In this document: positions 578 to 26,529 of the stretch, one piece after another
Layout of the letters: every line of letters begins with the position of its first letter
Numbering within the stretch: the first letter of the stretch is position 1
IMG/VR virus record: IMGVR_UViG_3300029543_000199
DNA length: 38,001 bases
Reading direction: 5' to 3' (one strand)
Source of the DNA: a virus
Lineage: Duplodnaviria; Heunggongvirae; Uroviricota; Caudoviricetes
The notes under the pieces: generated by a model
Databases searched by the model: none
The model's input: only the letters and a program-made list of their open reading frames with translations
Told to the model about the DNA's origin: nothing
Made by a program: the position numbers and the translations under genes

Positions 578-2170
578 TTACAGTTTTACGCAGTAATCAA
601 GAGAAACCCATCCGGCTCCGGATTTCAATTTACCCCAGCCCTTAGTAGAACCGGTTCCTGCTTTTTCTTCAATAATTGTGAATACGCCTTTGCCTGTATA
701 GGCTCCAGTCTTAGGATAGTTCGTACCTGCACCGGAACGAATTCTAAGGTCTGTAGCATCAATACGAACACGATACGGTACATTTGATTTACTTGCAGCT
801 GGCTTTGAGGAGGAGCCAGAAGTAGTAGAACCAATCGTACAATATGAAGCGTTCTCAAGATAAATCCATCCAGCACCAGATTTCAGCTTGCCCCATCCGT
901 TACTTACGGATGTGATAGTGAATGTGCCTTTTCCTGTCTGACCTACGATAGTTCCGTTAGGTGTCTTTCTGATATTGAGATCAGATACGATAACATTTAC
1001 CGTGAATGGAGTCGCAGGGAAAGATGAATTTGTCTTAGGCGGAGTTGTATTACCACCAGTATTCGTATCTGCGGAAGAACTTGTTCCAAGCAATGCATTG
1101 ACTCTATTAGCCAAATCTCCGTATCTTGAATACAGCCAGTCGCCAGGACAGCTCTTATTCGCAAAGAATCTATGAGCAGTTAATACCATCTCATTGCTCT
1201 TAGGTGTATACTCGAGAGCTGCTGTTTTACTTCCTTTCCAAACGAGTTTGTTCTTGCCATTTCTCTTACAGATATCAGCACAAAGCTTAATCAGTTTTTC
1301 ATAAACAGCATTATTCATTTCGTAAGGTTCGTTCATACCACTTGCGCACTCAATGGTAATTGCTCTCTGGTCATTTGCGTTGCTAGAAGAACACCAACTT
1401 CTATTGGCTTCATCTACGCAAAGTACGACACGACCGTCTTTCCCAATACCATAGTTGCAGCTTGCCTGTCTTGAAGAACTTGTAAAGCATCCACCGATAG
1501 ATTCGGCAGAGAGCTGTCCAACAACACAATGCGGCGTAATCCTGTCGATAGAGTGTGTTCTTTGTCCGCTATGATTAGGACTCTTTACCGCGCAATCTAC
1601 AAGTGAACTGTTTGTGTATCCCATAGTTTTACCTCCTTCTTGCTGATTTGTTTTTGAAGCAAATTTGTCATAATATACCTGTCCGTATGAAGCCCTCTTG
1701 CTCTGTACGGCAGAGCTTTGGTCTGCAGGGCGTTCGTACTGCAAGAGAACAGAATTCGATGCCTGCAGAACAGTAGTGGCGCTTCTCAGTACGGACATTA
1801 CTGTGCCGTAATTTTCACTCAGCTCTTTGTACATGAACTCAAGCTGCATTTCTAAATCGCCAATAGATGTTCCTTTTGAATGGCAAAATTCAAGCAGTGC
1901 CTGTTTTCTGCTCCAATAAGTCCACTGGCATAATCCGTATCCAGCACTATCACGCACGAAGTTTGTATATGTACCTGCGTCTACACCACTCGTGTATGAT
2001 GCGTCTGTATAGCCAAGTTTCTTTTCAAATGAATTCTGCAGGTTTGTGGAACTAAGCCCGCTCTCAGCGTAGATGTTTCCCATAAGCCCTGATGCTCCGC
2101 ATTTCGTCATTCCTTTGCTGATACAGAAATTCCAGATGCGTTCTTCATTCGTTGCTCCTGTTAATGCCAT
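578..2170 (-). CDS. Endolysin: phage-tail-lysozyme-like domain + N-acetylmuramoyl-L-alanine amidase (Amidase_2) + two SH3b-like domains
   Basis: N-terminal GLMGNIYAESG..GYGLCQWT..YERPAD. Amidase motifs ITPHC, ASCNYGIG, ITIEC, HRFFANKSCPG. Two C-terminal repeats L(N/R)IR...WGKLKSGAGW(I/V)xL. Confidence 0.9.
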   Translation of the reverse strand: MALTGATNEERIWNFCISKGMTKCGASGLMGNIYAESGLSSTNLQNSFEKKLGYTDASYTSGVDAGTYTNFVRDSAGYGLCQWTYWSRKQALLEFCHSKGTSIGDLEMQLEFMYKELSENYGTVMSVLRSATTVLQASNSVLLQYERPADQSSAVQSKRASYGQVYYDKFASKTNQQEGGKTMGYTNSSLVDCAVKSPNHSGQRTHSIDRITPHCVVGQLSAESIGGCFTSSSRQASCNYGIGKDGRVVLCVDEANRSWCSSSNANDQRAITIECASGMNEPYEMNNAVYEKLIKLCADICKRNGKNKLVWKGSKTAALEYTPKSNEMVLTAHRFFANKSCPGDWLYSRYGDLANRVNALLGTSSSADTNTGGNTTPPKTNSSFPATPFTVNVIVSDLNIRKTPNGTIVGQTGKGTFTITSVSNGWGKLKSGAGWIYLENASYCTIGSTTSGSSSKPAASKSNVPYRVRIDATDLRIRSGAGTNYPKTGAYTGKGVFTIIEEKAGTGSTKGWGKLKSGAGWVSLDYCVKL

Positions 2171-2217
2171 ATAGAAATCAAAACCCCTTTCGTAAATTAT
2201 TTAATTAGCTTAATAAG

Positions 2218-2598
2218 TTATGAAGCAGCTTCGTTTGTCTTAACAATCTCACGCAAAGTATCAAGTGCGCCATCGATTTGTTCATCGATATATTTAATCA
2301 GTGCATCCTGATCCACAACTTTTGTCAGAATCGGATACTCCTCATAAATCTGCTTGATTACCTGAGAGCGCTTGATAGAACCAGCCTTGCTCCATTCCTG
2401 CCAATCAACCTCAGCATCACTAATCATTTTCAGAATAGTGGTCTGAATCTGTTTCTTAGCAAGTTCAATTTTTTCTTCCTGACTCTTGGACATGTAGTCG
2501 TGAGTCTTCTTGATGATACCTACGATCAACCCGGCGCAAACAAGTATGCTTGTCCAGTTATCGTTGAGTATCTGTAAAAATTTCTGCAATCCTTCCAT
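2218..2598 (-). CDS. Putative holin-like protein
   Basis: Single N-terminal TM segment plus a helical cytoplasmic domain, immediately upstream of the endolysin. Confidence 0.55.
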   Translation of the reverse strand: MEGLQKFLQILNDNWTSILVCAGLIVGIIKKTHDYMSKSQEEKIELAKKQIQTTILKMISDAEVDWQEWSKAGSIKRSQVIKQIYEEYPILTKVVDQDALIKYIDEQIDGALDTLREIVKTNEAAS

Positions 2599-2603
2599 AG
2601 TGT

Positions 2604-2987
2604 TTACCCCTTTCCAGATTCCGAATTAGTTGTTTCATGCTCCTTCATTGCAGTTTCATACACGATTCCGCCTTCCGTGTTTTCTGCTTTTGATTTACTG
2701 TAGTATCCGAAGATGACAGGAGCAAGAGAAGCGACAATGCCAAGCAGAGCATAAGCCTGAGACAAATCACACAACCGATGTGATTCATACATGAACCATA
2801 TAGCAATGCAAAATACAAGAGCAACCATAGCCCAAAGAACCAATTTACTATTGGAGATTTTTCTTGAACTTTTTGGATGCCCTTTTGCCCGTTCCGCTTT
2901 TAATTTTCTTTGTCTTGCTTTGCTTTCATTATCGCGTTTGATTCGCAGCATTTCCGCATTGTATTCTTTTTCACTGATATACTTCAT
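2604..2987 (-). CDS. Putative holin (two TM segments)
   Basis: Two hydrophobic helices and a YYSKSKAEN motif; located in the lysis cassette. Confidence 0.55.
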   Translation of the reverse strand: MKYISEKEYNAEMLRIKRDNESKARQRKLKAERAKGHPKSSRKISNSKLVLWAMVALVFCIAIWFMYESHRLCDLSQAYALLGIVASLAPVIFGYYSKSKAENTEGGIVYETAMKEHETTNSESGKG

Positions 2988-3083
2988 TGTTTCACCACCT
3001 TTTTTGAAATACTATATACAGAGAATGAAATGATTAAATAAACTATATATAGTATTCTGACGATTATAAAACGTGAATTTGAT

Positions 3084-3293
3084 TTACTCTAACCCATATA
3101 ATAGACTTTGAAGCGGAGTAACATATTTACCGCTTTCATGTCTATATCCGTCTGGCGTTTTATAGATTGTATAACCGCCGCATATGTAGACAGTTCCGTC
3201 GGTATGATTACGCCATTCTGGTAGACCTAAATCTTCACATGTTATAGGTTGATTTGACCTACATTTGTCAAGAAATTCAGCATTACTTTGCAT
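3084..3293 (-). CDS. Hypothetical protein
   Basis: 69-aa ORF with a GAGGAGG RBS, overlapping the upstream stop. Confidence 0.5.
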   Translation of the reverse strand: MQSNAEFLDKCRSNQPITCEDLGLPEWRNHTDGTVYICGGYTIYKTPDGYRHESGKYVTPLQSLLYGLE

Positions 3294-3654
3294 TCATCGC
3301 CTCCTCAGTATAGTAAATAGCCGCAGGCTTGATTCCTTCATCGGTCGCGACATATATTTCTGGGATTCTTATAAGCAAATGCTTCAATACGGTATCTGAA
3401 AATGTTTTGCTAATACCTGGCTGAATAATAAGCTTATTTGCCTTTATGCCACGAGCTGAATCATTTGCATAAACAAATCGAACCATTGTACCATCTACCA
3501 GTTCGATCCAGCAGCCACAGCGTGATTTAATCATCTTGTTAATCATGTCATGCGGATATATATCCAGAACCTTGCTGAACATCTCGTCTCTCCACTCAAT
3601 ATCAGAATATACAATCAAAATTCGTTGTCTTAATATTGTAGTTAAATCGTTCAT
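3283..3654 (-). CDS. Hypothetical protein
   Basis: 123-aa ORF with an AAGGAG RBS and an ATGA overlap with the upstream gene. Confidence 0.6.
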   Translation of the reverse strand: MNDLTTILRQRILIVYSDIEWRDEMFSKVLDIYPHDMINKMIKSRCGCWIELVDGTMVRFVYANDSARGIKANKLIIQPGISKTFSDTVLKHLLIRIPEIYVATDEGIKPAAIYYTEEAMNAK

Positions 3655-4094
3655 TTCTTCTCCTTAAATTTCCATCGATAGTAAGGTTTTTCTTCTCCAA
3701 AAAACCAATATCTCTCATAATCATCAATCACGATCGCACATGCAGACAGGATTACCCATAGCAGCGAGAATGGTAGACATATCTGCCCAAGTAAATTAAA
3801 TGGCATGTTTGAATAATCCCATATGCCAAGTCCGAGCCACAGGTTTAAGATACATCCAGATATAAATTCGCCTGTTGTGACAATGCATGATCCTATGATT
3901 GCCTGTAACCATATCGGCGTGTCCATTGATAGAATCTCATTGATGAGACCAATACATATACCACAAACGCCAGCAAGAATAAACATGCTTACATGGCTAT
4001 AACCGCGCCATATGATTTCAATCAGATAGTATATAGACCCCATCACAGTGAAAAGTGAGAGATATTTAAGGCATAATGATAGAGCCTTTTTCAT
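3651..4094 (-). CDS. Four-TM membrane protein (CmpB/TMEM229-like putative permease family, common in phages)
   Basis: Four hydrophobic segments and a WDYSNMPFNLLGQICLPFS motif; GGAGG RBS. Confidence 0.7.
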   Translation of the reverse strand: MKKALSLCLKYLSLFTVMGSIYYLIEIIWRGYSHVSMFILAGVCGICIGLINEILSMDTPIWLQAIIGSCIVTTGEFISGCILNLWLGLGIWDYSNMPFNLLGQICLPFSLLWVILSACAIVIDDYERYWFFGEEKPYYRWKFKEKK

Positions 4095-4121
4095 ACCAAT
4101 AACCTCCGTTTAAATGTGATA

Positions 4122-4140
4122 GAGCCGGGTATACCGGCTC
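4122..4140. terminator. Perfect 7-bp hairpin (possible terminator or processing stem)
   Basis: gagccgg-gtata-ccggctc in the intergenic region. Confidence 0.4.
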
Positions 4141-4284
4141 ACCACACGAATTCTTATAACTTATTGATATAGGGTTCGTTGCCGATTGTACTTTTCTCCA
4201 TACTTAGCTTTTTGCTAATCCAACGATTGTCTCTTGTGTAAACACAAATCGTAGTCGGAACCTCCCAATCCCTATACACATATA

Positions 4285-4854: not shown

Positions 4855-5127
4855 TTAAAGTAATGCGCTCAGTTCAATGATGCACTGTTTCATTTTTTCT
4901 GCTTCTGTCATTTCACGAATGATAAATCTTGTATGACCATCCTCGTTCCAGATATTTGTGCATGTCATATCTTTGTAGTCAACGCCACCAATGTTTACAT
5001 TGGATAAATTAGCGTCAGACAGAATCTCAATATTAACTGCATCGTCTGTGATATAGTTGTTGCCATTGATCGTGGCGTGAATCTCTGTTCCGTTTGCGAG
5101 GATAATATTGTAAATAGTATTTTCCAT
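4855..5127 (-). CDS. Small phage protein (fibre-associated, unknown)
   Basis: 90 aa; its GGAGG RBS and first 95 nt lie inside the RT ORF. Confidence 0.65.
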   Translation of the reverse strand: MENTIYNIILANGTEIHATINGNNYITDDAVNIEILSDANLSNVNIGGVDYKDMTCTNIWNEDGHTRFIIREMTEAEKMKQCIIELSALL

Positions 5128-6304
5128 CTATAAAACCTCCAAATAAGTCATAGTAAAGAAGATTTAAGTTATCACGTTGTATCTTACTCATAAGGTGGCA
5201 GTGACCACCCATCCAGGAGCGAAACATATTTTCTACTTCCTCCTGTGTACGTTCTCCATTCTTAACCTTGATGCTCAAAGCTTTGAGTTTACGTCTCATA
5301 TCAACAATTCTTTTCGGATTGATTTTCCTTATTACTCTACCTGTGTCAGTGAGAGAGTAGGAGATTTGAAGAAATCTATAGTAGTCTGATAGCTTTACTA
5401 TTCGTGTTTTCTTCCTGTTCAATGTCATTCCGAGTTCCGTTGCTTTAGCTGCAATCTTAGCCTCAAGCTCTACAAGATATTCTCTGCTCTGAGATATCAC
5501 ATAGCTATCATCCATATATCTGCCGTAGAATTTCTGACCTTCTACAATCTTGACAAAGTTATCTATTTGCGTTGGATAATATATTCCGATTATCTGCGAA
5601 CACTGATCTCCAATATTTACAGATTTACGCATATACTTTTCGCCTGTATGAGCGGACTTCGGAACATTCAATCTGTATTCTGCAGAATTGAAAGGTGTTT
5701 CCATGCAATGCTCATATTCTTCGTCGGTCATATATGAGACATCAATCTTGAAATTATCGAAGATTAAGTCCAATAACCATAGCGAAAACTCATCTGTAAC
5801 ATGCTTTGCAATTTCTTTATATGCAATATCATGTGGTATGTTATCGTAGAATTTACTGTAATCCATCAGTAAGATGTACCCGTCATTTCCGTGCTGGCGA
5901 TAGTATTTGTGTAGATGATATTCAAATCTTTCGCGACTGAAAGTAATTCCTTTTCCTTTGAGCGACGCTCCATTATCATAGACGAGATAAGAGAGTATGC
6001 TCGGAGCAAGAACATTATCGCAAAGAGAATGCCGGATTACTCTGTCTGACATTTGAAGACCAGTAATGGGTCTTGTCTTTCCTCTTTCGTTAATAATGAA
6101 TTCTGTCGAGGCTAATGAATGGTAGTTTCTGCTCTTTAAAGCAGCTTTACTTTTCACAATATGCGGAAGAAAATTCATTTCATATTTCTGAACCTGTGGT
6201 TTCCAGTCAGAATCTTTCTTAGCCGCTATATATGCGTGATAAAGTGAATTCAGATTATATACAACGTCACACTCATCTTCAAATTGTGTGTTTGTATTAG
6301 TCAT
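5033..6304 (-). CDS. DGR reverse transcriptase
   Basis: Motifs ERGKTRPI, DRVIRH, GASLKGKG, MDYSKFYDNIPH, IGDQCSQ (DGR-type GxxxSQ) and catalytic YGRYMDD; no maturase or endonuclease domain. Confidence 0.95.
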   Translation of the reverse strand: MTNTNTQFEDECDVVYNLNSLYHAYIAAKKDSDWKPQVQKYEMNFLPHIVKSKAALKSRNYHSLASTEFIINERGKTRPITGLQMSDRVIRHSLCDNVLAPSILSYLVYDNGASLKGKGITFSRERFEYHLHKYYRQHGNDGYILLMDYSKFYDNIPHDIAYKEIAKHVTDEFSLWLLDLIFDNFKIDVSYMTDEEYEHCMETPFNSAEYRLNVPKSAHTGEKYMRKSVNIGDQCSQIIGIYYPTQIDNFVKIVEGQKFYGRYMDDSYVISQSREYLVELEAKIAAKATELGMTLNRKKTRIVKLSDYYRFLQISYSLTDTGRVIRKINPKRIVDMRRKLKALSIKVKNGERTQEEVENMFRSWMGGHCHLMSKIQRDNLNLLYYDLFGGFIDGKYYLQYYPRKRNRDSRHDQWQQLYHRRCS

Positions 6305-8181: not shown

Positions 8182-10098
8182 TTATATACCTAATTTCTTT
8201 TCGAGTTTCTCTATACGTTCGTTGAAACTCTGCATTTGCAGTTCATCGTATAGAATTCTGACCAATAAAAAATGAGTATACTCAATGCAGTAATACTCAT
8301 CTTCATCATCAGGATTAAGTTTTCTTGTTCCAAGCATCAGGAGTTTATCTTCAACTCCATGCCTAGCGAATGCATTTCTTAAATCTTGTGCTAGAATTCC
8401 AACGCATAACTCATCGTGGTCGTAGTCAGGTGCTGACATTCTAAACTGTTTGAAATGTACTTCTCCGACAGCTAGGATAATTTCCTTTGCTATCGGTTCA
8501 ATATCTCGTTTCATGCGAACATCCGAGAGAGTTCCGCTCCATGTCCCATCAAGGAATCCTTTCCCGTTTTCTGCTTTGATATGTATACCATCGGAGTTTG
8601 CATAGATGCGCCCACGTTTTCCTTGAGTTCCATTATTGTTATAGTACCAATCAGACCATCCATATCCACCAGGCGTATTTTCATTCATTAGATTTACGCC
8701 TTTAAAAATACGCATCAGCATAGCGCAATCAAAACCAGAGCGATTAGCGGTTTTCCCAAACGCAATACCATCGCCACCAGCTTTATAGTCCATAGTCGCG
8801 AAGCCGTTTGATAATGTCATTGTAGCGATGGCTTCACGACCTGCTTTATCTCGAATGATAACTCTGATATCGTATGCTTCAGTGTCCGAAACAGCGATAA
8901 CACGCGTGTCATTAAGAGATAATGAACTTGCACTAATATCTAGGTTTGTCCATGCGGATTGCCCTGCAATTCTGTATTGTAGAACAGGAGTAAGCGTGTT
9001 GCCGGATATACTACTTACGGAACCTTTGGCAACGATTTTAGCATGGTTTCCGGTATCGTCTGATACGAAATTACTGGTAGTTGTTCCAGTACCACGAGAT
9101 GCTGTGATAGAAGCGGATGGAAGGCTGTAATCGACTACAGTAACATCTAATGCAGCAGCTGCAGAACGACCTCTACTATCGGTAGCAGATACTTTTACAA
9201 CTTTTGTTCCGGTCTTCGTAAATGCATCGAATGTATACTCTGTTCCGCTTGATGCCGTTTTGTCTGACATATCAGTAACCGCTATTTTCAGTGTTTTAAT
9301 GGACGATCCATACACACCAGAAGCAGTAGGTTTTACCTTAACCCCAGAAAGCAACTTCGCATAACATCCAAATGTATTATTCGTATTGGAGAGCGATGCA
9401 ATATTGCATGTAGGAACTACGGATGCTGGGAGATAAGCAGTAACTGACACAGTTTTCGTACCAATCTTTGTGCCTCCATTCATCGTATCAACAGTGAATG
9501 TCAATGTTCCGCTTGTCGCATTCGGTATCTGACCAGCATATTTTGCTATCGTAAATCCATTCCATACTACGTTATCCACACAAGAGTTCGTTACGACTTC
9601 AGACTTATTTCCGAATGTAGCTGTGACCTTATGTGTGAAGCTCGCTTTCTTATTCATATGTATGATTATCTGGTCGCCCATGTTTACCGAAGATACGCTT
9701 GAAGGCCAGTTGTTTACTGAAGGCTGCGATGCTCTTGGTATGGTATCAAGAGACCAGCTACCGCTTCCATTTCCTGTACCATCCGCATAATAGTAAATAG
9801 CACTAGAGATACTTGCGGAAAAAGATTGCGTACCATTACTGTTATGATTTACAGTGACAGAACCACTACACAGTTTTCCTTTATATTGTTTCCATCGACC
9901 AGTGTTGTTATAAACTGTGCTTCCAGCAACAACTACCTTACAGGGTCCCGTCATGTACCATCCGGCACTACCGCCTATAGCTTCGACGGTGTAGTAGATT
10001 GTAGATGTATTTGCACCAACATTTTGCGAAGCCGTCCAGCTGAATTTCCAGCATCTTCCTTCGTATCCACCGGTCGTAAAACTTCCGCTTAAAGCCAT
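8182..10098 (-). CDS. Siphovirus tail fibre/minor tail protein (DUF859-like) with C-terminal intramolecular chaperone (peptidase S74-like)
   Basis: Beta-rich N-terminus with an LDTIPRAS motif and GIAFGK; SDVRMKRDI cleavage motif, GILAQD and a terminal coiled coil. Confidence 0.8.
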   Translation of the reverse strand: MALSGSFTTGGYEGRCWKFSWTASQNVGANTSTIYYTVEAIGGSAGWYMTGPCKVVVAGSTVYNNTGRWKQYKGKLCSGSVTVNHNSNGTQSFSASISSAIYYYADGTGNGSGSWSLDTIPRASQPSVNNWPSSVSSVNMGDQIIIHMNKKASFTHKVTATFGNKSEVVTNSCVDNVVWNGFTIAKYAGQIPNATSGTLTFTVDTMNGGTKIGTKTVSVTAYLPASVVPTCNIASLSNTNNTFGCYAKLLSGVKVKPTASGVYGSSIKTLKIAVTDMSDKTASSGTEYTFDAFTKTGTKVVKVSATDSRGRSAAAALDVTVVDYSLPSASITASRGTGTTTSNFVSDDTGNHAKIVAKGSVSSISGNTLTPVLQYRIAGQSAWTNLDISASSLSLNDTRVIAVSDTEAYDIRVIIRDKAGREAIATMTLSNGFATMDYKAGGDGIAFGKTANRSGFDCAMLMRIFKGVNLMNENTPGGYGWSDWYYNNNGTQGKRGRIYANSDGIHIKAENGKGFLDGTWSGTLSDVRMKRDIEPIAKEIILAVGEVHFKQFRMSAPDYDHDELCVGILAQDLRNAFARHGVEDKLLMLGTRKLNPDDEDEYYCIEYTHFLLVRILYDELQMQSFNERIEKLEKKLGI

Positions 10099-17772: not shown

Positions 17773-20700
17773 CTACCATTGATATTTATTTTTTGATAAC
17801 TTGCTACCACCAGATAACTGGTCAACAGTCATAGAACGAATCATCTTTTCAAACTTTCCGTCCTTACGCATCTGATTCATAAAATCATTGTAGTCTTGTA
17901 CATGTTCTATCGGAATTGTTACCTGATAGGTGATGTCTCCGATATTTGTTTCTCTGCCTGATATTGGCGCACCAATTTTGGCAAGTTGTGATAACACATT
18001 CGCAGCACCATCGTCTCCTCCAAACAGTTCGCTCAAAGGATTGTTTCCGTCTGCGATACTCCTCATAGCATCTTTTAATGCAATAAAGTTTTGTGTATCT
18101 TTCGGGTTAAGAACCATTTCAGGTTCTGTAGGCGTACCATCAAGCCAAGCCATTCCGGTATAATCAGCCAGACCACCCTTCTTAAATGCACTGTAGTAAT
18201 ATTTAGAAAGATTGCTCTTTCCCGTACTTACCCAGTATCTATACAAATCTCCATTATTGGCGTGAGCATTGATGTAGCTCTGCACGGCAGCCGCGTTAGA
18301 TGCTCCGAATTTAGCGGTAAGACGTTTCTTTCTGTTTGGGTCATTTCCCCACCCAGATTTAGAACCGTAAATCCAGATAGCAGCAGCAACGCCACGTTTT
18401 ACATCCTCATTGAATTTCGGAGTATTGTTGGTTGGTTGCTTAGCAGGAGTATTTGCTTGTGTAGGTGGTTTTGCGGACGTATCCGTCTTCGTTGATGGAG
18501 TAGCAGAAGATATAGTTGAATCAGCCTTCTTATCACTTTCTTTTACCATAGCACCAATTTTGTATGCTATTTTTGTGATAACATCATTTACTGATGTCAT
18601 CTGTGTTAAGAAAGATTCTCCATATTTTGTAATGATGGAGCCTGCGCCACCCTCATTTGTCCAAATAGACTTCATTGCAGCGGTTAAATCGTAACCAACT
18701 TTATCACTCTGCGTTTGCAGTGTGGTACTGATATTGGCTGAATTCTGATTGATAGTGTTAATCATATCAGCCATTAAAGCATCGATGTTATCCAGGCGTT
18801 CATTTAGGATAGCTTCATACTCATCATACAGATTGTCGAGAAGCTTTTTCTGTTCACTGATATAGTGTTCATACTGAGTCTCCTCAAGATTATCCATAGC
18901 ATCAGCTAAGTCAACCTGAATTTTCTGTATGGTTGCTTTAGTCTCTTCTGAGTTGTCGCCGGAATAAGCAGCTAACTGTTTCTGAAGCTTAGAGATTTCT
19001 GATGTCTGTTCCTCAACCTTTTTCTGATAATCATACAGATCCTTGGCTGTATCCATAGCATCTGTATATCTATCAATCAAATCCTGTAATGCATCAAGCT
19101 CTTTTTCGATACCATCAGCAACAAGGTCTTTAATAGCCTGTTTCTCATCCTCTGCGGCAAGGATAGAATCACGTTGAGCCTCAAGTAAATCCTGACGATG
19201 CTCCAGAAGTTTCGTGTTGTTCGGGTCTTCTGCAATCTCGGCATTTAACTTCTTCAATTCCTCTGCATACTTATCAGCCTGAGCCATGTACACATTATAG
19301 TTCTGACCGTGAAGACCTAGCGTTGCCATTCCGGTATCAGTAAACTGTCCGTTATCGGTAAATAAGTTAGAGTTCTCCATTAAGTCGATCAGGAAGTCCG
19401 CCTCGTCAGTGATGTTACTGATTTGCTCCTGCAAGTAATCGAATCTATCCCACTTTGTCTCACGAATTGAGTTCTGGAATTTTACAAGAGCTGTTTCAGA
19501 TTCCTGGATTTTCTCCTTAACTCCGTTGATATCATTCTGCATGTCATACCATGCTTCGCTGCCTTCTTTGATTTCTCCAGAGTTGACAGCTTCCGACATA
19601 GACCGAACAAGTGAGTCAAGCTCTTTCTTCTGAATATCAATGTTTTGTTTCTCAACATTTTGCATTGCTTCGTAGAACTTAGTGCTTGCCATATATCCTC
19701 GTTCTTCAAGGTCATCTATGCCATTATCATACGTATTCGTGAGATGCTCTAAGAGACTGAGCTGGTTTTCAAAATCGTTTGAGAGATTATCGAATCTGTC
19801 TTTGTATAAGTTGGCGATTTCTTCGTGCAGATCCGCAACAGCGTCCTTCGCTTCAATAGCCTTCTCGTAAAAGTCCTGATAATCCTTAATCTTATCGGCG
19901 AGGTCTTCATCAGTAACAGTCGTGATTTCAATCGAACCGTCTCTGATTTTTCTAGCCCAAGATTCGTCAAGACCGAGAGAATTGGCTTTTGCCATATATC
20001 CCTCATACGCTCTGTTCTCTACATCAATCTTATTTGCAATAGCAGACATTTCAGAAACTAATGCACTATTACGTGTGCTAAGAGTCTTGAATGCACTATC
20101 AGCAGTTACTTTCAGTCTATCTATTGCTTCGGTCGCTCTATCGACAGCAATCGCAATAAGGTCAAATACTTCTTCAAATTCTTTTTCAGACGAAGAGGAG
20201 CTTGATTTAGATCCACTTGATTTCGATGACGAAGAACCTCTGGATGAACGAGATGAGCTTCCAGAACTTTTCTTCGATGAAGAAGATGGTTTTCTGCTTG
20301 TAGAAGATGAGCTTGGCTTATATGGTTTGTATCCGCCAGTAACCATCGCTGTACCGCTAACTAGAGCAGAAGCCCGTCCAGAAACATATCCGTTCTCAAG
20401 TAAGCTTTCGGTCTGCTTGTGATTGAATACGATTGCTCCTGCTGGTATATCTCTAAACTCCGCACCATTGTCTCCGACTGTATACCATCTGCCGGTTCGT
20501 GGGTCTACAACAATTTCGCGACCAAGTTCTCCAACAAGAGTGCTGCCGCCAGGTGCTGTTCCCCAGTCTCCGCCAGCTCTCGCAGTTCCGCCAGCATGAG
20601 CGGTACCGCTTACATTTGAACCAGTTTTTACATAGTTTACATACCGTGTAATCGTACTGAATGAGCTAGGGAGGTTTGCAGTATTAGCTATATAGTTTAC

Positions 20701-23700
20701 AGTTCGATTGATAGAAGAGAATGATTCGGGTAATAAGTCTGTCTTCGGGTCATAGATAACATCGCACTTCTTTGACTCAGGATTATACCCGTCTATTGCC
20801 GACGCATCGACATTTGCCTTCACATTTATAGTCTCCGCAGATAGTCCAGCGATAGATGTTTTGATGGAATCAACCGATGTTGAATCAATATTCAGCTTCG
20901 CTTTGATATCTGGAGAAATGCCTTCTATTTCAGAAGCCAGAGAATTTACTTTCGATTCAGCTTCAGATGTATCAGCACCGACTTTCTGTTTAATCTCAAG
21001 GTCGTTTGTTGCGTTCTGGAATTGCTGTAAAAGAGATATTGCGTTTCCAATTTCGCCTTCTACCTGAGATGTATCAACCCTCATTACATCAGGCTGTGAT
21101 AAAAGCTGCTTCTGAGTGAGGCAGTATTGAATAACAGCATTGGCATTATCAATACTTGACGCATCTACGTCAGGTCTGGCTTTTACGCCATCCATTTCTG
21201 CTATAGTTGCATCCAATGCATTTATCTGTTCTTCGGTCGTTGAAAGGTCAGAGACATCCATTTTGATTTTTAAATCGCTATTTCCGTCCATCTGTCTTAG
21301 AGATTCCGCAGCCTCATTAGCTTCTACAGCTAAATCGCCTATAGTCTTTACGGCTTCATCTCCCCAGTCGAAATTTGCACCTTTAAGCTGAAGCTCATCA
21401 AAGAATGCCTGAACAACACCTGATGATAAATTAAGACCTTCTGCAAAATCCTCCATCTTCTTGCCACCGAGGACTTTAAATCCATCGTCTTCACTGTATG
21501 ACATAAGACCTGCATCAACAGATTTCTGCAAGAACTTATCTACATCAAGTCCCTCTACAACTCCGTCATCATCAAATCTCAAATATTCTTTGAAATTTGC
21601 CATATATGATTCGATTGCACTAAGGTCTTCGCTATCTACAGAATCTGGAACGATGAAATCTACAGCTGCTTCAAATTTCTTTGAGCCAAAGTTTCCATAT
21701 ATATCTGAATTTGCGTCGTATGTGTCTCGAATTTGCTGTATAGCACTAACCGTATCATTTGCCATGTCGCCATAGTCTGATGCGCCTTGTGCGTTCAGCC
21801 AGTTCTGATATGCTCCGACAGCTTCCTGAATAGAAGCAGATAATAAATCATACTGAGCACAGTTATCTGCAATAGCACTATTTTCGGATAATAAGGCATC
21901 AATAGAAGCTTGAATACTTTCCGCAGTTTCTCCTTCTGCGAAGCTTGCGTCTTGCAACTGCTGACGATACTGTTCAATCTGTCTTGCATTCTCAAGGTAC
22001 TGAGCCTGTTCAAGCGCCTTGTTCGTGTTGTTTGTTGCAACCTGCTCTTCGGCTTTAGCCTTAGCAATCTCACGAACTTTCTCTGCATTTAACTGCATTG
22101 TACCATTGACATACTCAAGAGCACCTCTGTAATCTGCAAGTTCGTCTGAATTGAAATCTGCAAGAGATACAGACTTGCCGTTCTGCTGACTACTAAGAAC
22201 ACTCTGTACAGTTGTAAGACCATTAACAAGATTTTCAGCAGCAGTACGCATATCTGACATAGATACTGTTGTTTCTTCCATTCCTTCTACAGGCTCTCCA
22301 GAAACAACGCCGAGTTCAATAAGCATATTCGCGAGTGACTGCAGGCTCTCGGAAGATGTATCGCTGATTACACCTGCGTCAAGCGCAGCCTGTACCAATG
22401 CATTTATCTGTTCTTCGCCTTCCTGTACACCATCTGTTTCAAATGCATATATGAAATCTTTGTCATCCAGCTTTAAGTCTTTCAGTTCCTTCGCCGCATC
22501 TGCAATTTCTTTTGCTCCGTCTGACGTATCAATACCATTGACTGCATCCTTAAAATCATTCGCACTGATAGCAGCGGTGTTTAGCTGATCGCTAATTTCT
22601 GTGAATGAGTCAGCGTATCCGCTCATATCAGATTCCAGAAGTGATTGAACGGACTTATCTACAGCGTCAAAGTTTGTCTTTGCTTCAGCTATTTTGGATG
22701 AGTCTCCGCTCGCGAGAGCATCATTATATTCCTTTACCGCTTGGGAATAATCACGCATCCACTCAGCGGCTGTCTTAGAATCTCCGCTTTTGTCTTTATA
22801 TTCAGTTTTATCTCCGGCGATTTCAGCAGCTTTTGCCTGTTCATACACTTCCTGATATTTATCCAGAACTTTGTTTGCACTTTTTAGACCACTTTCTGCA
22901 TAACTGAATATATTGTCGAGCATCCAGTTCCCGCCAAGTTCATCTGATGCATTTCTGACATCTGTCATGAAATCATTCAGAGCGGCTTCTGCCTGTGTTG
23001 CGTCTCCTTTAAAGTAGAGCTGCAGCGTACCGTCTAATCCCTGCTGTGTTGTTATTAAATCTCCATATTTTTTCTGAGAGTTCTTAATCGCCTTTTTGAG
23101 AGCCTCAGACGCTTCGTCTCCCTCTGCATCATAAAACTGTCCAAGGTAATAGGTTCTGTTTTTCTCCATTTCCTTGGTTGCTTTGTTGATACCTTTTTGA
23201 TTCTCATTCAGATACTTATTTGCATCTGACTGGCTTAACTGATCCATCAGACCAATCTGCTCACGCAGTGATCCATTTACGAGGTCAATTCCGTCAGCCT
23301 GACTTCCATATGAATCTGTTAATGACTCCTGAATTGATAGAAGCTCTGATTTTGCCTGATATGCTTCTGATTCCGTAAGCGTACCGGATGCTAATTGATT
23401 CCTTAATTCTACAACTCTATTTTTATAATCTTCGATGGAACTGTTTGATTCCTTCCACGCATTACCAGCTTCTTGAGCAGCCTGAACCTGTTTTTGCATG
23501 TAGTTATCATATATTTTCCATCCAATGAATGCTGCGCCTACAAGTGCGATAATTCCTACAAGAGGTGCTAACGCACCGAATAAAGCAGTTGCTCCTGCGG
23601 CGACCGCACCGAATACTCCGGCTCCGCCTGCGAGTGCAGTTGACATAGCTTCAACCGCAATAGTTACTTGCGGAAACGCAGTTCCTAATGCTTGTATGAT

Positions 23701-23742
23701 GCTTGTAAGTGTTTTTGCTCCTTCGATACCTTTTATAGCAGA
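17773..23742 (-). CDS. Tape measure protein, exon 2 (1989 codons)
   Basis: The frame is open 32 codons upstream of ATG 23646 (SAIKGIEGAKTLTSIIQALG...) to the predicted 3' splice site. There is no RBS at 23646. Long helical Ala/Glu/Lys/Leu-rich sequence. Confidence 0.88.
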   Translation of the reverse strand, partial: SAIKGIEGAKTLTSIIQALGTAFPQVTIAVEAMSTALAGGAGVFGAVAAGATALFGALAPLVGIIALVGAAFIGWKIYDNYMQKQVQAAQEAGNAWKESNSSIEDYKNRVVELRNQLASGTLTESEAYQAKSELLSIQESLTDSYGSQADGIDLVNGSLREQIGLMDQLSQSDANKYLNENQKGINKATKEMEKNRTYYLGQFYDAEGDEASEALKKAIKNSQKKYGDLITTQQGLDGTLQLYFKGDATQAEAALNDFMTDVRNASDELGGNWMLDNIFSYAESGLKSANKVLDKYQEVYEQAKAAEIAGDKTEYKDKSGDSKTAAEWMRDYSQAVKEYNDALASGDSSKIAEAKTNFDAVDKSVQSLLESDMSGYADSFTEISDQLNTAAISANDFKDAVNGIDTSDGAKEIADAAKELKDLKLDDKDFIYAFETDGVQEGEEQINALVQAALDAGVISDTSSESLQSLANMLIELGVVSGEPVEGMEETTVSMSDMRTAAENLVNGLTTVQSVLSSQQNGKSVSLADFNSDELADYRGALEYVNGTMQLNAEKVREIAKAKAEEQVATNNTNKALEQAQYLENARQIEQYRQQLQDASFAEGETAESIQASIDALLSENSAIADNCAQYDLLSASIQEAVGAYQNWLNAQGASDYGDMANDTVSAIQQIRDTYDANSDIYGNFGSKKFEAAVDFIVPDSVDSEDLSAIESYMANFKEYLRFDDDGVVEGLDVDKFLQKSVDAGLMSYSEDDGFKVLGGKKMEDFAEGLNLSSGVVQAFFDELQLKGANFDWGDEAVKTIGDLAVEANEAAESLRQMDGNSDLKIKMDVSDLSTTEEQINALDATIAEMDGVKARPDVDASSIDNANAVIQYCLTQKQLLSQPDVMRVDTSQVEGEIGNAISLLQQFQNATNDLEIKQKVGADTSEAESKVNSLASEIEGISPDIKAKLNIDSTSVDSIKTSIAGLSAETINVKANVDASAIDGYNPESKKCDVIYDPKTDLLPESFSSINRTVNYIANTANLPSSFSTITRYVNYVKTGSNVSGTAHAGGTARAGGDWGTAPGGSTLVGELGREIVVDPRTGRWYTVGDNGAEFRDIPAGAIVFNHKQTESLLENGYVSGRASALVSGTAMVTGGYKPYKPSSSSTSRKPSSSSKKSSGSSSRSSRGSSSSKSSGSKSSSSSSEKEFEEVFDLIAIAVDRATEAIDRLKVTADSAFKTLSTRNSALVSEMSAIANKIDVENRAYEGYMAKANSLGLDESWARKIRDGSIEITTVTDEDLADKIKDYQDFYEKAIEAKDAVADLHEEIANLYKDRFDNLSNDFENQLSLLEHLTNTYDNGIDDLEERGYMASTKFYEAMQNVEKQNIDIQKKELDSLVRSMSEAVNSGEIKEGSEAWYDMQNDINGVKEKIQESETALVKFQNSIRETKWDRFDYLQEQISNITDEADFLIDLMENSNLFTDNGQFTDTGMATLGLHGQNYNVYMAQADKYAEELKKLNAEIAEDPNNTKLLEHRQDLLEAQRDSILAAEDEKQAIKDLVADGIEKELDALQDLIDRYTDAMDTAKDLYDYQKKVEEQTSEISKLQKQLAAYSGDNSEETKATIQKIQVDLADAMDNLEETQYEHYISEQKKLLDNLYDEYEAILNERLDNIDALMADMINTINQNSANISTTLQTQSDKVGYDLTAAMKSIWTNEGGAGSIITKYGESFLTQMTSVNDVITKIAYKIGAMVKESDKKADSTISSATPSTKTDTSAKPPTQANTPAKQPTNNTPKFNEDVKRGVAAAIWIYGSKSGWGNDPNRKKRLTAKFGASNAAAVQSYINAHANNGDLYRYWVSTGKSNLSKYYYSAFKKGGLADYTGMAWLDGTPTEPEMVLNPKDTQNFIALKDAMRSIADGNNPLSELFGGDDGAANVLSQLAKIGAPISGRETNIGDITYQVTIPIEHVQDYNDFMNQMRKDGKFEKMIRSMTVDQLSGGSKLSKNKYQW

Positions 23743-23745
23743 CTC

Positions 23746-23774
23746 TTTTCAAAGGCAATATCGTGTGGTATGAT
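23746..23774 (+). promoter_or_regulatory. SigmaA-type promoter of the intron-borne antisense gene
   Basis: TTTTCA (23746-23751), 17-bp spacer, extended -10 TGgTATGAT (23766-23774), then an AAAGGAG RBS at 23781-23787. Confidence 0.65.
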
Positions 23775-23796
23775 AGGTGAAAAGGAGAATAATCAT

Positions 23797-24306
23797 ATGT
23801 CACTTATTACATGTCCGGAATGCGGTGCTCGCATATCCGATAAAGCATCATGCTGTGTACGGTGTGGATACCCATTACAAGATGTGGATAAAACACCAGA
23901 TTTATATTATGTAAAGCGCATTGAAGATAAATGGGTGCTAGGCAAAGCAAGATCAATGCTTGCACAAACATACATTACAAATAAAAATTCATCCGAATAT
24001 TCAGATTATTCGATAATAGCATCTGGTATTACAAAAGATAGAGCCGATATACTGCTTGACTTCATTATTAAAAATAGAGGAGAAGCAGAAGTAGTACCGG
24101 ATGAAAATAGTAAATCTGTCAATCAGAAGATGATGGATTATATTGACATTAACTTCAATAAGAATGCGCCTGTAATGTGTCCGCGTTGCAAATCCACGCA
24201 GATCGTAACTGGTCAAAGAGGTTTCAGTCTAATAACAGGATTTATTGGAAGCAATAAGACTGTAAACCGTTGTTCCAAATGCGGTTACACATGGCAACCA
24301 AAGTAA
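23797..24306 (+). CDS. Zinc-ribbon protein (169 aa) encoded antisense inside the intron
   Basis: Four CxxC motifs (CPEC, CVRC, CPRC, CSKC) and a C-terminal GFSLITGFIGS segment. ATG 23797 has an RBS. It is the only well-supported plus-strand gene. Confidence 0.85.
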   Translation: MSLITCPECGARISDKASCCVRCGYPLQDVDKTPDLYYVKRIEDKWVLGKARSMLAQTYITNKNSSEYSDYSIIASGITKDRADILLDFIIKNRGEAEVVPDENSKSVNQKMMDYIDINFNKNAPVMCPRCKSTQIVTGQRGFSLITGFIGSNKTVNRCSKCGYTWQPK

Positions 24307-24738
24307 TATCTTCTTATCGACGCAGATATTGTGCGTACCACATTTAAAGTAGGAGATAAGTTCCCACTACACGAGGACTATACATTAAAAGTCGCTACAC
24401 TAGGCTGTAGCGGCTCAAAGGGTGGGTAGTCTCTGAAGATGAAGCTGTGAGTCTTCGTCCGGCTGATGTTATCCTATCCGTAGAAAATACTTCTACATGG
24501 CACTTAGGCTTACTATCACCATATACCATCCAATCATTTGTTTCTGCCTTTCGCAACATTCACGCTTATTGTTTCCAATTACGTTGTAGTATGATTGGTT
24601 TAACCAGTTTCCCAGCAATTACCCCTTCGTGTGATTTATTTTAAAACGCTCACCCATAGTCTTGGCTCATACCTCCATAACGGTACGTCCTTAACCATGC
24701 CGACCTCTGCCATAAAAGCAACCCATGATTTTGGGTTA

Positions 24739-26529
24739 AGCCACGTTCTTGATGACCTTGGCAAGTCCCAATCCTGCAAGAATTGTTCCTAATGATCCAA
24801 CGGTCTCAACGATTTTATCAATCGCTTCTACGATACCTTTAAGACCTTCGACGGCTCCTTTTGTAAAGTTTGAACTGATAAAATCAGAAGAAAGCTCCTG
24901 AAAGGCTGCTTTCAGTTCTCCGACCTTAGCCTTTGTGGTATCCATATATATATTGTTTGCTTCGGTAGCAATACCAGCAGAATCCATAGCACTTGAGTAT
25001 GCTCCGATAGCGTCTTTGATATTCGTGATTGTAGACATAATACCTGATGTATTACGAGTACCACCAAGAATCTCTGCGACACGAGATTGAGATACATCTT
25101 CCATGTTATCCCAAACCTCAGCCAACTGTACAAATATGTCGTACATGTCTTTATATGTGTTTTCATCTTTCATGATGTCAACGCCAGATAAAGCCTTGAT
25201 TTCTTCCCTGTACTTAGACAGACCCTGAGCTAATCCGTCTGTTTCTTCGCCCATTTCTTCAAGCTCTGTTGTAGCTCCTCGGATACGAGCACTGACTGTC
25301 TTCCACATTGTACCAGTGGTTTCTGCATTCTGAAGAGAAGCATTGGTAGCAGCAAAAAGAGCAGCACTCTTTTCAAAATCAGTTCCAGAAGCGTGGAGCG
25401 CAGCACCACCTCTCTGGAATGCAGCCATCAATTCTTCCGCTGAAATTGCGTATTCCTGACCGACCTTAACAAGTACATCTGATACATGCTCCGCATCATT
25501 AGCATCTAACTCGTATCCCTTTATAATAGAAGTAATACCAGTTGTTGCTGTGTCTACATCAGTATTACCAACGTTCGCCATGATATTTGCATACTTAGCA
25601 AGGTTGGAAGAATCACTCATGTTGTAACCAAGACGAGCAAAAGTTTCAATAGAAGATGCTACATCAGTTACGCTCTGTCCAAGCTCTTTTGCAAGTGCAA
25701 TGGATTTCGTAAGGAATGCTTCCATCTGAGAATCAGAGGCTCCCGTTACAATCTTAATCTGAGCCATAGCACTTTCAACTTCAACCGCAGCAGATACCAT
25801 CTGCTTTGCAGTTCTTACAGCAGTCATGATTACCTGTGTGATAGATAACCAAGATGCGAATTTGGTTGCTAAACCACCGAATCGATCTCCAAGTGTTTGG
25901 GTATTTTCACCAGCAGCTCTGATTGCAGCAGAAGACTCTGTAACAGTTGATTTGATACTACGGAATGAGTTCTCGAACTGTTCAGCAGATACAGTTCCGT
26001 TCATCAATCCAGACTTCAATGTTTCAAGCGCAGTAATCTGACCCTTTAATGCAGAATAATTATCACTGGATTTACCGCTTCTTGCGGCAGTCCATTTCTG
26101 TGTGTTGGCAGTAACCTGTCCAAGTAATGTGTTGACTTTATTTAAGGCATCGGTGTGCTTCTTTGTACCGGCTGCAAAAGTATCCTCACTTGCTTTTGCC
26201 TGTTTTGTCGCATCGGCGGCTTTCTTTGTAGCACTGGCATTTTCATTTTTTGCCTGCGTATTAGCTTTAATAGCAGCAGTGTCTTTTACCCAGATACCAG
26301 AGTTAGTCTTGGTATAGCCACCCATTGACTTCGCCGTATTCGCAGTTGCCGCAGCCTTAGTCATTGATTCAATCTGTTTCTTCATAGAAGACAGGGATGA
26401 ATCATCAAATTTAAGTTTTATTTTCGGTGGATTGGCGTTGACCTGAGAAACCAGACTGGTAATTCCTGCCTGAAATTCAGCATAACTCAACGAAGTATCC
26501 ACGCCGACTGTCAGTAAAATGTCAGCCAT
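24739..26529 (-). CDS. Tape measure protein, exon 1 (597 codons, TP901-family core)
   Basis: TP901-like core (VESAMAQIKIVTG, FARLGY, DVLVKVGQEYAIS, SARIRG); ends at the predicted 5' splice site GCT|TAA. Confidence 0.9.

Follow-up and report, generated by a model that had tools for sequence, protein, structure and literature searches.

The td intron of phage T4 carries a stop codon right after its 5' splice site and an ORF in a peripheral loop, and it relies on P1/P10 guide pairing. Haugen and colleagues are said to have described nuclear rDNA group I introns, in eukaryotic nuclei, that hold antisense homing endonuclease genes of the His-Cys box type. The subgroups IA1 and IA2 were reportedly defined by Michel and Westhof in 1990 by the extra helices P7.1/P7.2 between P7 and P3'. 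In tape measure genes, the group I introns TMP-IVS1, IVS2, and IVS3a/b occupy three sites in prophages of the Bacillus cereus group; as set out in the part of that report available to us, they are of subclass IA1 or IA2, have P1 and P10 adapted to each site, and often lack a complete endonuclease gene (Tourasse and Kolstø 2008, PMC2504315).

The stretch of viral DNA analyzed here, called the window, is 38,001 nucleotides long and carries on its minus strand a tape measure gene that is split by a 996-nt insertion (24738..23743). Judged from its sequence and that of its relatives, this element is very probably a group I intron with exactly these splice sites.

The split tape measure gene and its uninterrupted homologues

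The two parts of the gene were taken from the ORF list:

24739..26529, minus strand: exon 1, 597 codons, with the PhageMin_Tail domain inside
17773..23742, minus strand: exon 2, 1989 codons plus a stop codon

The gene was identified as a tape measure gene by its PhageMin_Tail domain, its great length, its alignment to annotated tape measure genes, and its position, with a DUF6558 tail protein gene downstream (such genes are expected between tail chaperone-like genes and that of the distal tail protein). The domain covers residues 279-488 of exon 1 (Pfam PF10145, E=1.4e-25). Exon 1 aligns up to its residue 589 with the uninterrupted 2528-aa tape measure gene of Brevibacillus phage Sundance, which continues on; the aligned part comprises residues 640-1083 of the Sundance protein, and exon 2 gives weak collinear matches to residues 1499-2211. 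Because of a TGA at 23751..23749, the open frame of exon 2 begins just two codons upstream of 23742; it extends to 17773. Its protein starts with SAIKGIEGAK, followed by a hydrophobic Ala/Gly-rich stretch and then by a long coiled-coil-like sequence. Joined, the 597 and 1989 codons keep the frame and give 2586 codons, with the junction ...KNVA/SAIKG... Elsewhere in the window, tail-fibre-like genes (DUF859/Peptidase_S74 at 8182..10098) have, a few kb away, a reverse transcriptase ORF of 423 aa (5033..6304, minus strand; RVT_1, E=5e-17) that could be part of a diversity-generating retroelement.

At E<=1e-10, the end of exon 1 (residues 250-597) matches 823 proteins, 1046-2985 aa in length. The best of these is 86% identical, and the ten best are 2394-2938 aa long. 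The 80-aa head of exon 2 is rich in Ala and Gly, which made its local alignment to 60 of the 120 homologues listed noisy, and 12 homologues were instead read by eye. All 12 cross the junction into the QAL..FP motif and the hydrophobic stretch of exon 2. Homologue P0005 does so gapless, with QAL..FP at the same offset, while P0002-4 and P0006 differ by 3-4 residues in a variable linker; P0001-P0006 extend through exon 2. A tblastn search of the phage collection with the exon-2 head gave no match.

At the nucleotide level, 42 of the 58 metagenome loci returned were examined, the other 16 being near-duplicates or short pieces. The intron start was found at the homologous codon in 22 loci, which are 78-100% identical (19 with a clean stop and three with upstream frame breaks); 14 loci read on uninterrupted and six were unclear. 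In the nearest intron-less locus (L115, 77% identical), the last base of exon 1 is at 2503 and exon 2 follows from 2504-2506, with no indel. The original prediction had proposed an in-frame 597+1989 aa fusion and named alignment to uninterrupted homologues across NVA/SAIK as a check; the host gene proved collinear there, both in protein (P0005) and in nucleotides (L115), and the fusion is borne out to that extent.

In the closest record of the phage collection (MT837120, locus L003), which has no Rfam match, the tape measure ORF ends 51 codons past the homologous point. The same behavior was seen more widely, as the distant tape measure ORFs of L122, L123, L132, and L003 (about 5050-5201) stop 33-51 codons beyond the homologous intron site and end in an odd ...GAGEPIK... 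or ...GEPKMTGF... tail. These early stops may reflect a different interruption slightly downstream.

Guide pairing, predicted splice sites and ribozyme fold

The elements that define the predicted splice sites are the following:

24701..24718, minus strand: internal guide sequence, with 24718..24706 as the P10 strand and 24705..24701 as the P1 strand
24736..24738, minus strand: UAA, the first bases of the intron, which also stop the 597-codon ORF in frame; 5' splice site between 24739 and 24738
23743..23743, minus strand: terminal G (omega G), a G in 8/8 aligned sequences; the 3' splice site lies between 23743 and 23742

In the RNA sense (24718..24701), the guide reads CUUUUAUGGCAGA followed directly by GGUCG. 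The latter (24705..24701) pairs with UGGCU of exon 1 (24743..24739) to form P1, whose five pairs (U-G, G-C, G-U, C-G, U-G) include three wobbles, with U24739-G24705 as the U-G at the 5' splice site. P10 is formed by CUUUUAUGGCAGA (24718..24706) and UCUGCUAUAAAAG of exon 2 (23742..23730), in 13 pairs of which one is G-U. P1 and P10 are contiguous and together make 18 unbroken guide-exon pairs. Relatives have UAA or UGA at the same place as the initial UAA, and 23742 is the sole in-frame exon-2 start preceded by G between the upstream TGA and 23739.

When the first 80 nt of the intron were shuffled, none of 5000 sequences reached 18 pairs, the maximum being 15, which occurred once. Among 700 alternative 3' sites (24300..23601) tried against the fixed 5' site, 23742 ranked first, with 18 pairs against 13 for the runner-up. 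Pairing length alone is no general predictor, since in relatives an unanchored scan for the longest pairing landed on the in-frame site at just one of nine loci and was wrong at the other eight; it becomes predictive only with P1 as an anchor. In the P1-anchored scan, the longest P10 fell on a G-preceded site opening more than 640 in-frame codons in four of seven loci, with P10 of 13, 8, 6, and 20 bp; there was one tie, and L023 and L041 failed.

The P1 strand tracks the exon it has to recognize. Across divergent tape measure genes, the exon/guide combinations are UGGCU/GGUCG, UGCU/GGCG, UAUCU/GGAUA, UAAGU/GCUUA, and UAGAU/GUCUA, so that P1 is re-matched to four other exon sequences (L026, L040, L041, L028), and in these variants a stop codon (UAA or UGA) always stands directly after the splice-site U. 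P10 ranges from 6 to 20 bp in relatives. Its eight exon-proximal pairs are 100% paired in all eight close sequences, and pairs 9-13 in five of the eight.

With these results, the earlier claim that the guide predicts both splice sites holds up against the shuffles, the 700 alternative sites, the covariation described below, and the uninterrupted homologues. The 5-bp P1 with its canonical U-G at 24739/24738, the initial UAA, and the final G at 23743 are read directly in the sequence, the U-G being kept, like the G, in 8/8 sequences. The 13-bp P10 with one G-U was likewise found as described. Relatives span 6 to 20 bp, with only the eight proximal pairs shared by all eight close sequences, and thus a long P10 is a trait of the family and no oddity of this copy.

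Because the minimum free energy fold of the 431-nt core as a single sequence was not that of a group I intron, comparative analysis was used instead. The structure was drawn by hand on the window's own sequence, which by itself favors the drawn pairs over controls with slid partners; the count of compensatory pairs is therefore a stronger measure than the paired fraction. It was checked on two alignments. The first, A3, has eight sequences: the window, one Ruminococcus sp. MAG (L015), and six IMG/VR relatives whose exon 1 is 86-99% identical, all of these relatives containing the insertion. The second, A5, has 10 sequences, with the window, a close relative, five more divergent tape-measure introns, and two Staphylococcus stretches. 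The elements of the fold are:

24720..24737, minus strand: P1 extension, a hairpin (AACCCA/UGGGUU) that separates the guide from the 5' splice site; its 6 pairs form in each of the eight sequences
24699..24655, minus strand: P2 of 15 pairs; A3 shows 99% pairing, and A5 shows 10 pairs changed on both sides
24653..24631, minus strand: P2.1 hairpin, identified by eye
24376..24627, minus strand: catalytic core, with the structure checked on A3 and A5
24627..24621 with 24423..24417, minus strand: P3, AAGGGGU/ACCCUUU
24616..24612 with 24466..24462, minus strand: P4, GCUGG/UCAGC
24598..24530, minus strand: P5 extension of about 70 nt, with two GAAA-loop hairpins
24460..24437, minus strand: P6
24431..24427 with 24380..24376, minus strand: P7, GACUA/UAGUC, strings equal to the RF00028 consensus
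24412..24393, minus strand: P8, CGCUACA/UGUAGCG
24348..24368, minus strand: P9 hairpin AGUGGGA/UCCUACU; 7 pairs, 100% paired, one compensatory pair
24305..24330, minus strand: P9.1 hairpin AAUAUCU/AGAUAUU; 3 pairs changed on both sides
24336..24342, minus strand: 5' strand of a long-range helix, UGUGGUA, which closes the loop holding the antisense gene
23764..23770, minus strand: 3' strand of this helix, UACCACA, 21 nt before the 3' splice site

In A3, 98.1% of the 926 cells are paired, compared with 35-44% with slid partners, and 13 pairs are changed on both sides, compared with 1-2 in the slid controls. Two of the pairs changed on both sides are in P10 (A-U to G-C and G-C to A-U, as the exon goes from SAIK to SVTK), where three further pairs are changed on one side. 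The long-range helix has seven pairs that are 100% paired in the eight sequences, two of them changed on both sides. P1, P3, P4, and P7 are invariant among these eight closest sequences, and their support from covariation thus comes only from the wider set, which is harder to align. In that set (A5), 82.7% of the cells are paired (34-40% slid) and 49 of the 90 pairs are changed on both sides (16-21 slid); each helix from P1 to P8 has one or more of these pairs, and P1 has two. All core helices are above the slid controls in A3 and A5. The P3/P7 pseudoknot is part of the fold supported by covariation, and P7 fits the G-C pair expected for guanosine binding. Between P7 and P3' lies only CCC (24426..24424), a 3-nt spacer that leaves no room for P7.1/P7.2, and the intron thus lacks the feature of subgroups IA1 and IA2.

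Rfam does not recognize this ribozyme. RF00028 gave no match at gathering score on the whole window (cmscan), nor at E<=10 on 23500-24950 (1451 nt) or on the 426-nt core alone; the only Rfam rows returned there were chance miRNA/sRNA matches, which were discarded. The window nevertheless contains strings of the RF00028 consensus, namely AAUUGCUGGGAAA, UCAGAGACUA, GUAUAGUCC, UAAUUGCUGGGAAA, AUCAGCC, UUCAGAGACUA, and AUGUAUAGUCC. By blastn, 24628..24494 matches 91 phage records at 73-82% identity, mostly in unannotated gaps (69 Staphylococcus, 10 Lactococcus, 8 Enterococcus, 3 Brochothrix, and 1 Listeria). The matching stretch follows a short tail-tube CDS in phiIPLA-RODI (L001) and three tandem RF00028 matches (92.5, 61.4, and 36.3 bits) in PMBT8 (L002), and in both phages it is missed by RF00028 too.

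Several of these neighborhoods deserve mention on their own account. In PMBT8 (1387-2621), the three tandem matches are followed by the core-like stretch as a fourth unit, unseen by Rfam, and in phiIPLA-RODI (2125-4262) a stretch of this kind stands between a 113-codon 'tail tube' CDS and the gene Ioh; these layouts suggest unannotated introns in tail genes. Two contigs in a run that is probably of DNA share only a 30-43-nt stretch of the core (window 24548..24590) and then diverge, so the same sample holds other elements with this conserved ribozyme segment. Among the relatives, L028 has a second, weaker core match upstream within exon 1 (4030-4271, E=7.5e-6), and the exon-1 region of L023 (3456-5370) is split between two ORFs (241 and 333 aa); each of these findings could indicate a second intron in the same gene.

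The antisense gene in the intron loop

The loop in the P9 region holds an ORF on the opposite strand, on which the original prediction is silent:

23797..24306, plus strand: antisense passenger gene, 169 aa, in the P9-region loop
23746..23774, plus strand: promoter-like site upstream of the antisense gene, TTTTCA-17-TATGAT, in which TG precedes the -10; it overlaps a strand of the long-range helix

The gene is preceded by AAAGGAG. In a scan for the promoter consensus, three sites were found against 3.3 expected from shuffles, which is not above chance; what speaks for the promoter-like site is its position, plus a TGnTAAAAT at the same place in the L009 clade. The -10-like sequence TGGTATGAT (window 23764..23774) is the complement of the helix strand UACCACA, and the L009 clade changes both, to TGGTAAAAT with UACCAUG. 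As site and strand change together, one stretch may serve both RNA structure and promoter.

The predicted protein has an N-terminal zinc ribbon, an alpha/beta middle domain, and a C-terminal zinc ribbon, with weak zinc-ribbon matches in Pfam. It is kept as a protein in all relatives, the copy of the L009 clade being only ~37% identical. In PHROGs it belongs to phrog_2546, of unknown function (E=3e-12), and none of the 104 homologous clusters of its family has a functional name; the lone source label in the family, TiaS (P0205), was set aside because the protein does not look like TiaS. The variable alpha/beta domain matches the ribosomal L12 C-terminal family in many members. Across 32 sequences of the family, only Cys, Pro, Gly, and Trp are found as invariant residues, with no invariant His, Asp, or Glu. 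The structure model (pLDDT 84) gave no match to the PDB at E<=0.001 in Foldseek and no nuclease fold among the matches, the Atlas structure search returned only zinc-ribbon/L12-like clusters of its own kind, and NCBIfam had nothing above cut-off. By Pfam, PHROGs, NCBIfam, residues, and PDB comparison, the protein belongs to none of the LAGLIDADG, GIY-YIG, HNH, His-Cys box, PD-(D/E)XK, or EDxHD families. With no endonuclease signature, we do not call it a homing endonuclease. The intron is therefore best seen as a predicted splicing-competent carrier of a passenger gene.

The association of this gene with the ribozyme is not confined to the window. In 17 of the 78 viral loci with a family member, a ribozyme core lies immediately beyond the end of the gene on the other strand, and these include tape measure genes only 26-40% identical to the present one. 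In about 12 other loci the gene lies upstream of the tape measure gene, in the sense orientation. L029-L032, L034-L036, L039, L086, and L087 show it between tail genes in just this position with no core detected, so the zinc-ribbon family occurs free-standing as well as housed in introns. Rfam found no introns in 20 further loci with the zinc-ribbon gene. At L038, L046, L059, and L069, a long minus-strand ORF ends beside the zinc-ribbon gene and is followed by plus-strand ORFs of 137-384 aa, with no core; the long ORF of L038 matches exon 2 at 30% and those of the other three give no match. These loci may represent larger cargo loads or true gene splits.

A more far-reaching reading, which we hold to be something of a long shot, is that the ribozyme lineage missed by Rfam and the zinc-ribbon/L12-like family have long been partners. 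The intron would then shelter an independently transcribed gene, possibly expressed from the prophage, within an essential late gene, and the antisense gene or its transcript would act in the spread of the element or in the timing of tape measure expression. If this were true, the protein would stand for a new, non-nuclease kind of intron-associated protein.

Proposed splicing, its alternatives, and comparison with known introns

Three metatranscriptome runs of one study each yielded one contig on the ribozyme core, at 100% identity. They cover 24402-24732, 24390-24667, and 24528-24695, and show only that the core is present in RNA libraries. No exon-exon joint occurs among the contigs of those three runs, which touch neither exon nor the antisense gene.

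In the mechanism we propose, the intron (24738..23743) would fold as a group I ribozyme and remove itself from the late mRNA. A guanosine would attack after U24739, the exons would then be ligated under the guidance of P10, and the long-range helix would bring the 3' end of the intron back to the core. The ligated 597 + 1989 codons would be translated as one tape measure protein of 2586 aa. As UAA follows exon 1, unspliced RNA should give only a 597-aa fragment, and with such truncation tail assembly would need splicing. The loop in the P9 region would meanwhile carry the opposite-strand zinc-ribbon gene, likely expressed from its own promoter.

One alternative explanation accepts a true group I intron and supposes that splicing in vivo needs a protein helper, which could come from the host or could be the antisense zinc-ribbon protein in the role of a maturase. 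The weak P1, with three of its five pairs wobble, would fit such a need, as would the fact that the gene stays with the ribozyme through divergence (30-37% protein identity, with the layout kept in 17 of the 78 loci). We consider it unlikely all the same, because the antisense gene cannot be translated from the intron RNA itself, the protein does not resemble known maturases, and members of the same family also lie upstream of tape measure genes as ordinary genes on the sense strand, where no intron core was detected. Alternatively, the element could be the relic of a dead ribozyme, leaving two polypeptides, one of 597 aa ending at the UAA and one of ~1957 aa from an ATG at 23646. An ATG ORF of that length does exist within exon 2 (17773..23646), RF00028 sees no group I intron, and spliced RNA is absent from the contigs of the three runs, all of them confined to the core. 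The frame, however, stays open for 32 codons upstream of this ATG, back to exactly the predicted 3' site, in alignment with the uninterrupted homologues, and no Shine-Dalgarno-like sequence is read upstream of the ATG. Moreover, compensatory changes keep the helices across clades, including P1 and P10, which pair with the exons, and this would be unexpected in a dead element; a relic is therefore very unlikely.

It could also be argued that there is no intron and that a small mobile cassette, bounded by a 13-bp inverted repeat, has split the gene. In form, 24718..24706 and 23742..23730 are indeed inverted repeats, and they flank an opposite-strand gene that has a promoter-like site. Yet the right arm sits in conserved coding sequence shared by homologues without the intron, the left arm is 20 nt inside the insertion, the repeat is 6-8 bp or 20 bp elsewhere, tracking the change in the exon, and the adjoining 430 nt have a covarying group I fold, all of which makes a cassette extremely improbable. 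A self-removing group I intron with these splice sites thus remains the reading we prefer.

On this preferred reading, gene callers would report a truncated 597-aa "minor tail protein" and an orphan ORF of ~1960 aa, where the predicted true product is a ruler of 2586 residues. Tape measure proteins follow a rule of about 0.15 nm of tail per residue, by which a tail near 390 nm is predicted. In gut phages and Staphylococcus phages alike, this ribozyme lineage will escape pipelines that rely on Rfam. The family also offers a natural series in which P1 and P10 have been re-tuned to differing exon sequences at one conserved site, and the intron loop houses a conserved opposite-strand gene that is not an endonuclease. 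How introns of this kind spread, and whether accessory genes use them as landing pads, are questions that follow from this.

Like the td intron of T4, the present intron has a stop at the 5' splice site, an ORF in a peripheral loop, and a P1/P10 guide, but here the ORF is antisense and without a nuclease motif, and P10 has 13 bp. With the nuclear rDNA introns it shares a protein gene opposite the ribozyme strand; it differs from them in that the ORF is of bacterial type, has no endonuclease features, and lies in a phage late operon. The stretches in the Staphylococcus phages of the Kayvirus and Sextaecvirus groups are 73-82% identical over the P4-P5 extension, have the same helices with compensatory changes, and are equally missed by Rfam, whereas they lie in other host genes and phages, and the ORF downstream in RODI, 'Ioh', is on the sense strand. 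As judged by titles and abstracts, no paper in the literature searched describes an ORF on the opposite strand of a group I intron from a phage or prophage.

The introns of the B. cereus group, in the part of the report available to us, are also group I introns with site-adapted P1/P10 guides in prophage tape measure genes (PMC2504315). These are of subclass IA1 or IA2, whereas the present intron has no room for P7.1/P7.2 and has a large P5 extension. The host genes are different as well, being SPbeta/Sundance-like tape measure genes of ~2500 aa in gut Clostridia-type phages and not those found in prophages from the B. cereus group. The present intron carries an antisense passenger gene, of which that same part of the report makes no mention for the B. 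cereus-group introns, and it escapes Rfam, unlike them. As far as these sources go, tape-measure group I introns are thus already known, and what differs here is the group of phages, the lack of room for P7.1/P7.2, the escape from Rfam, and the conserved antisense gene.
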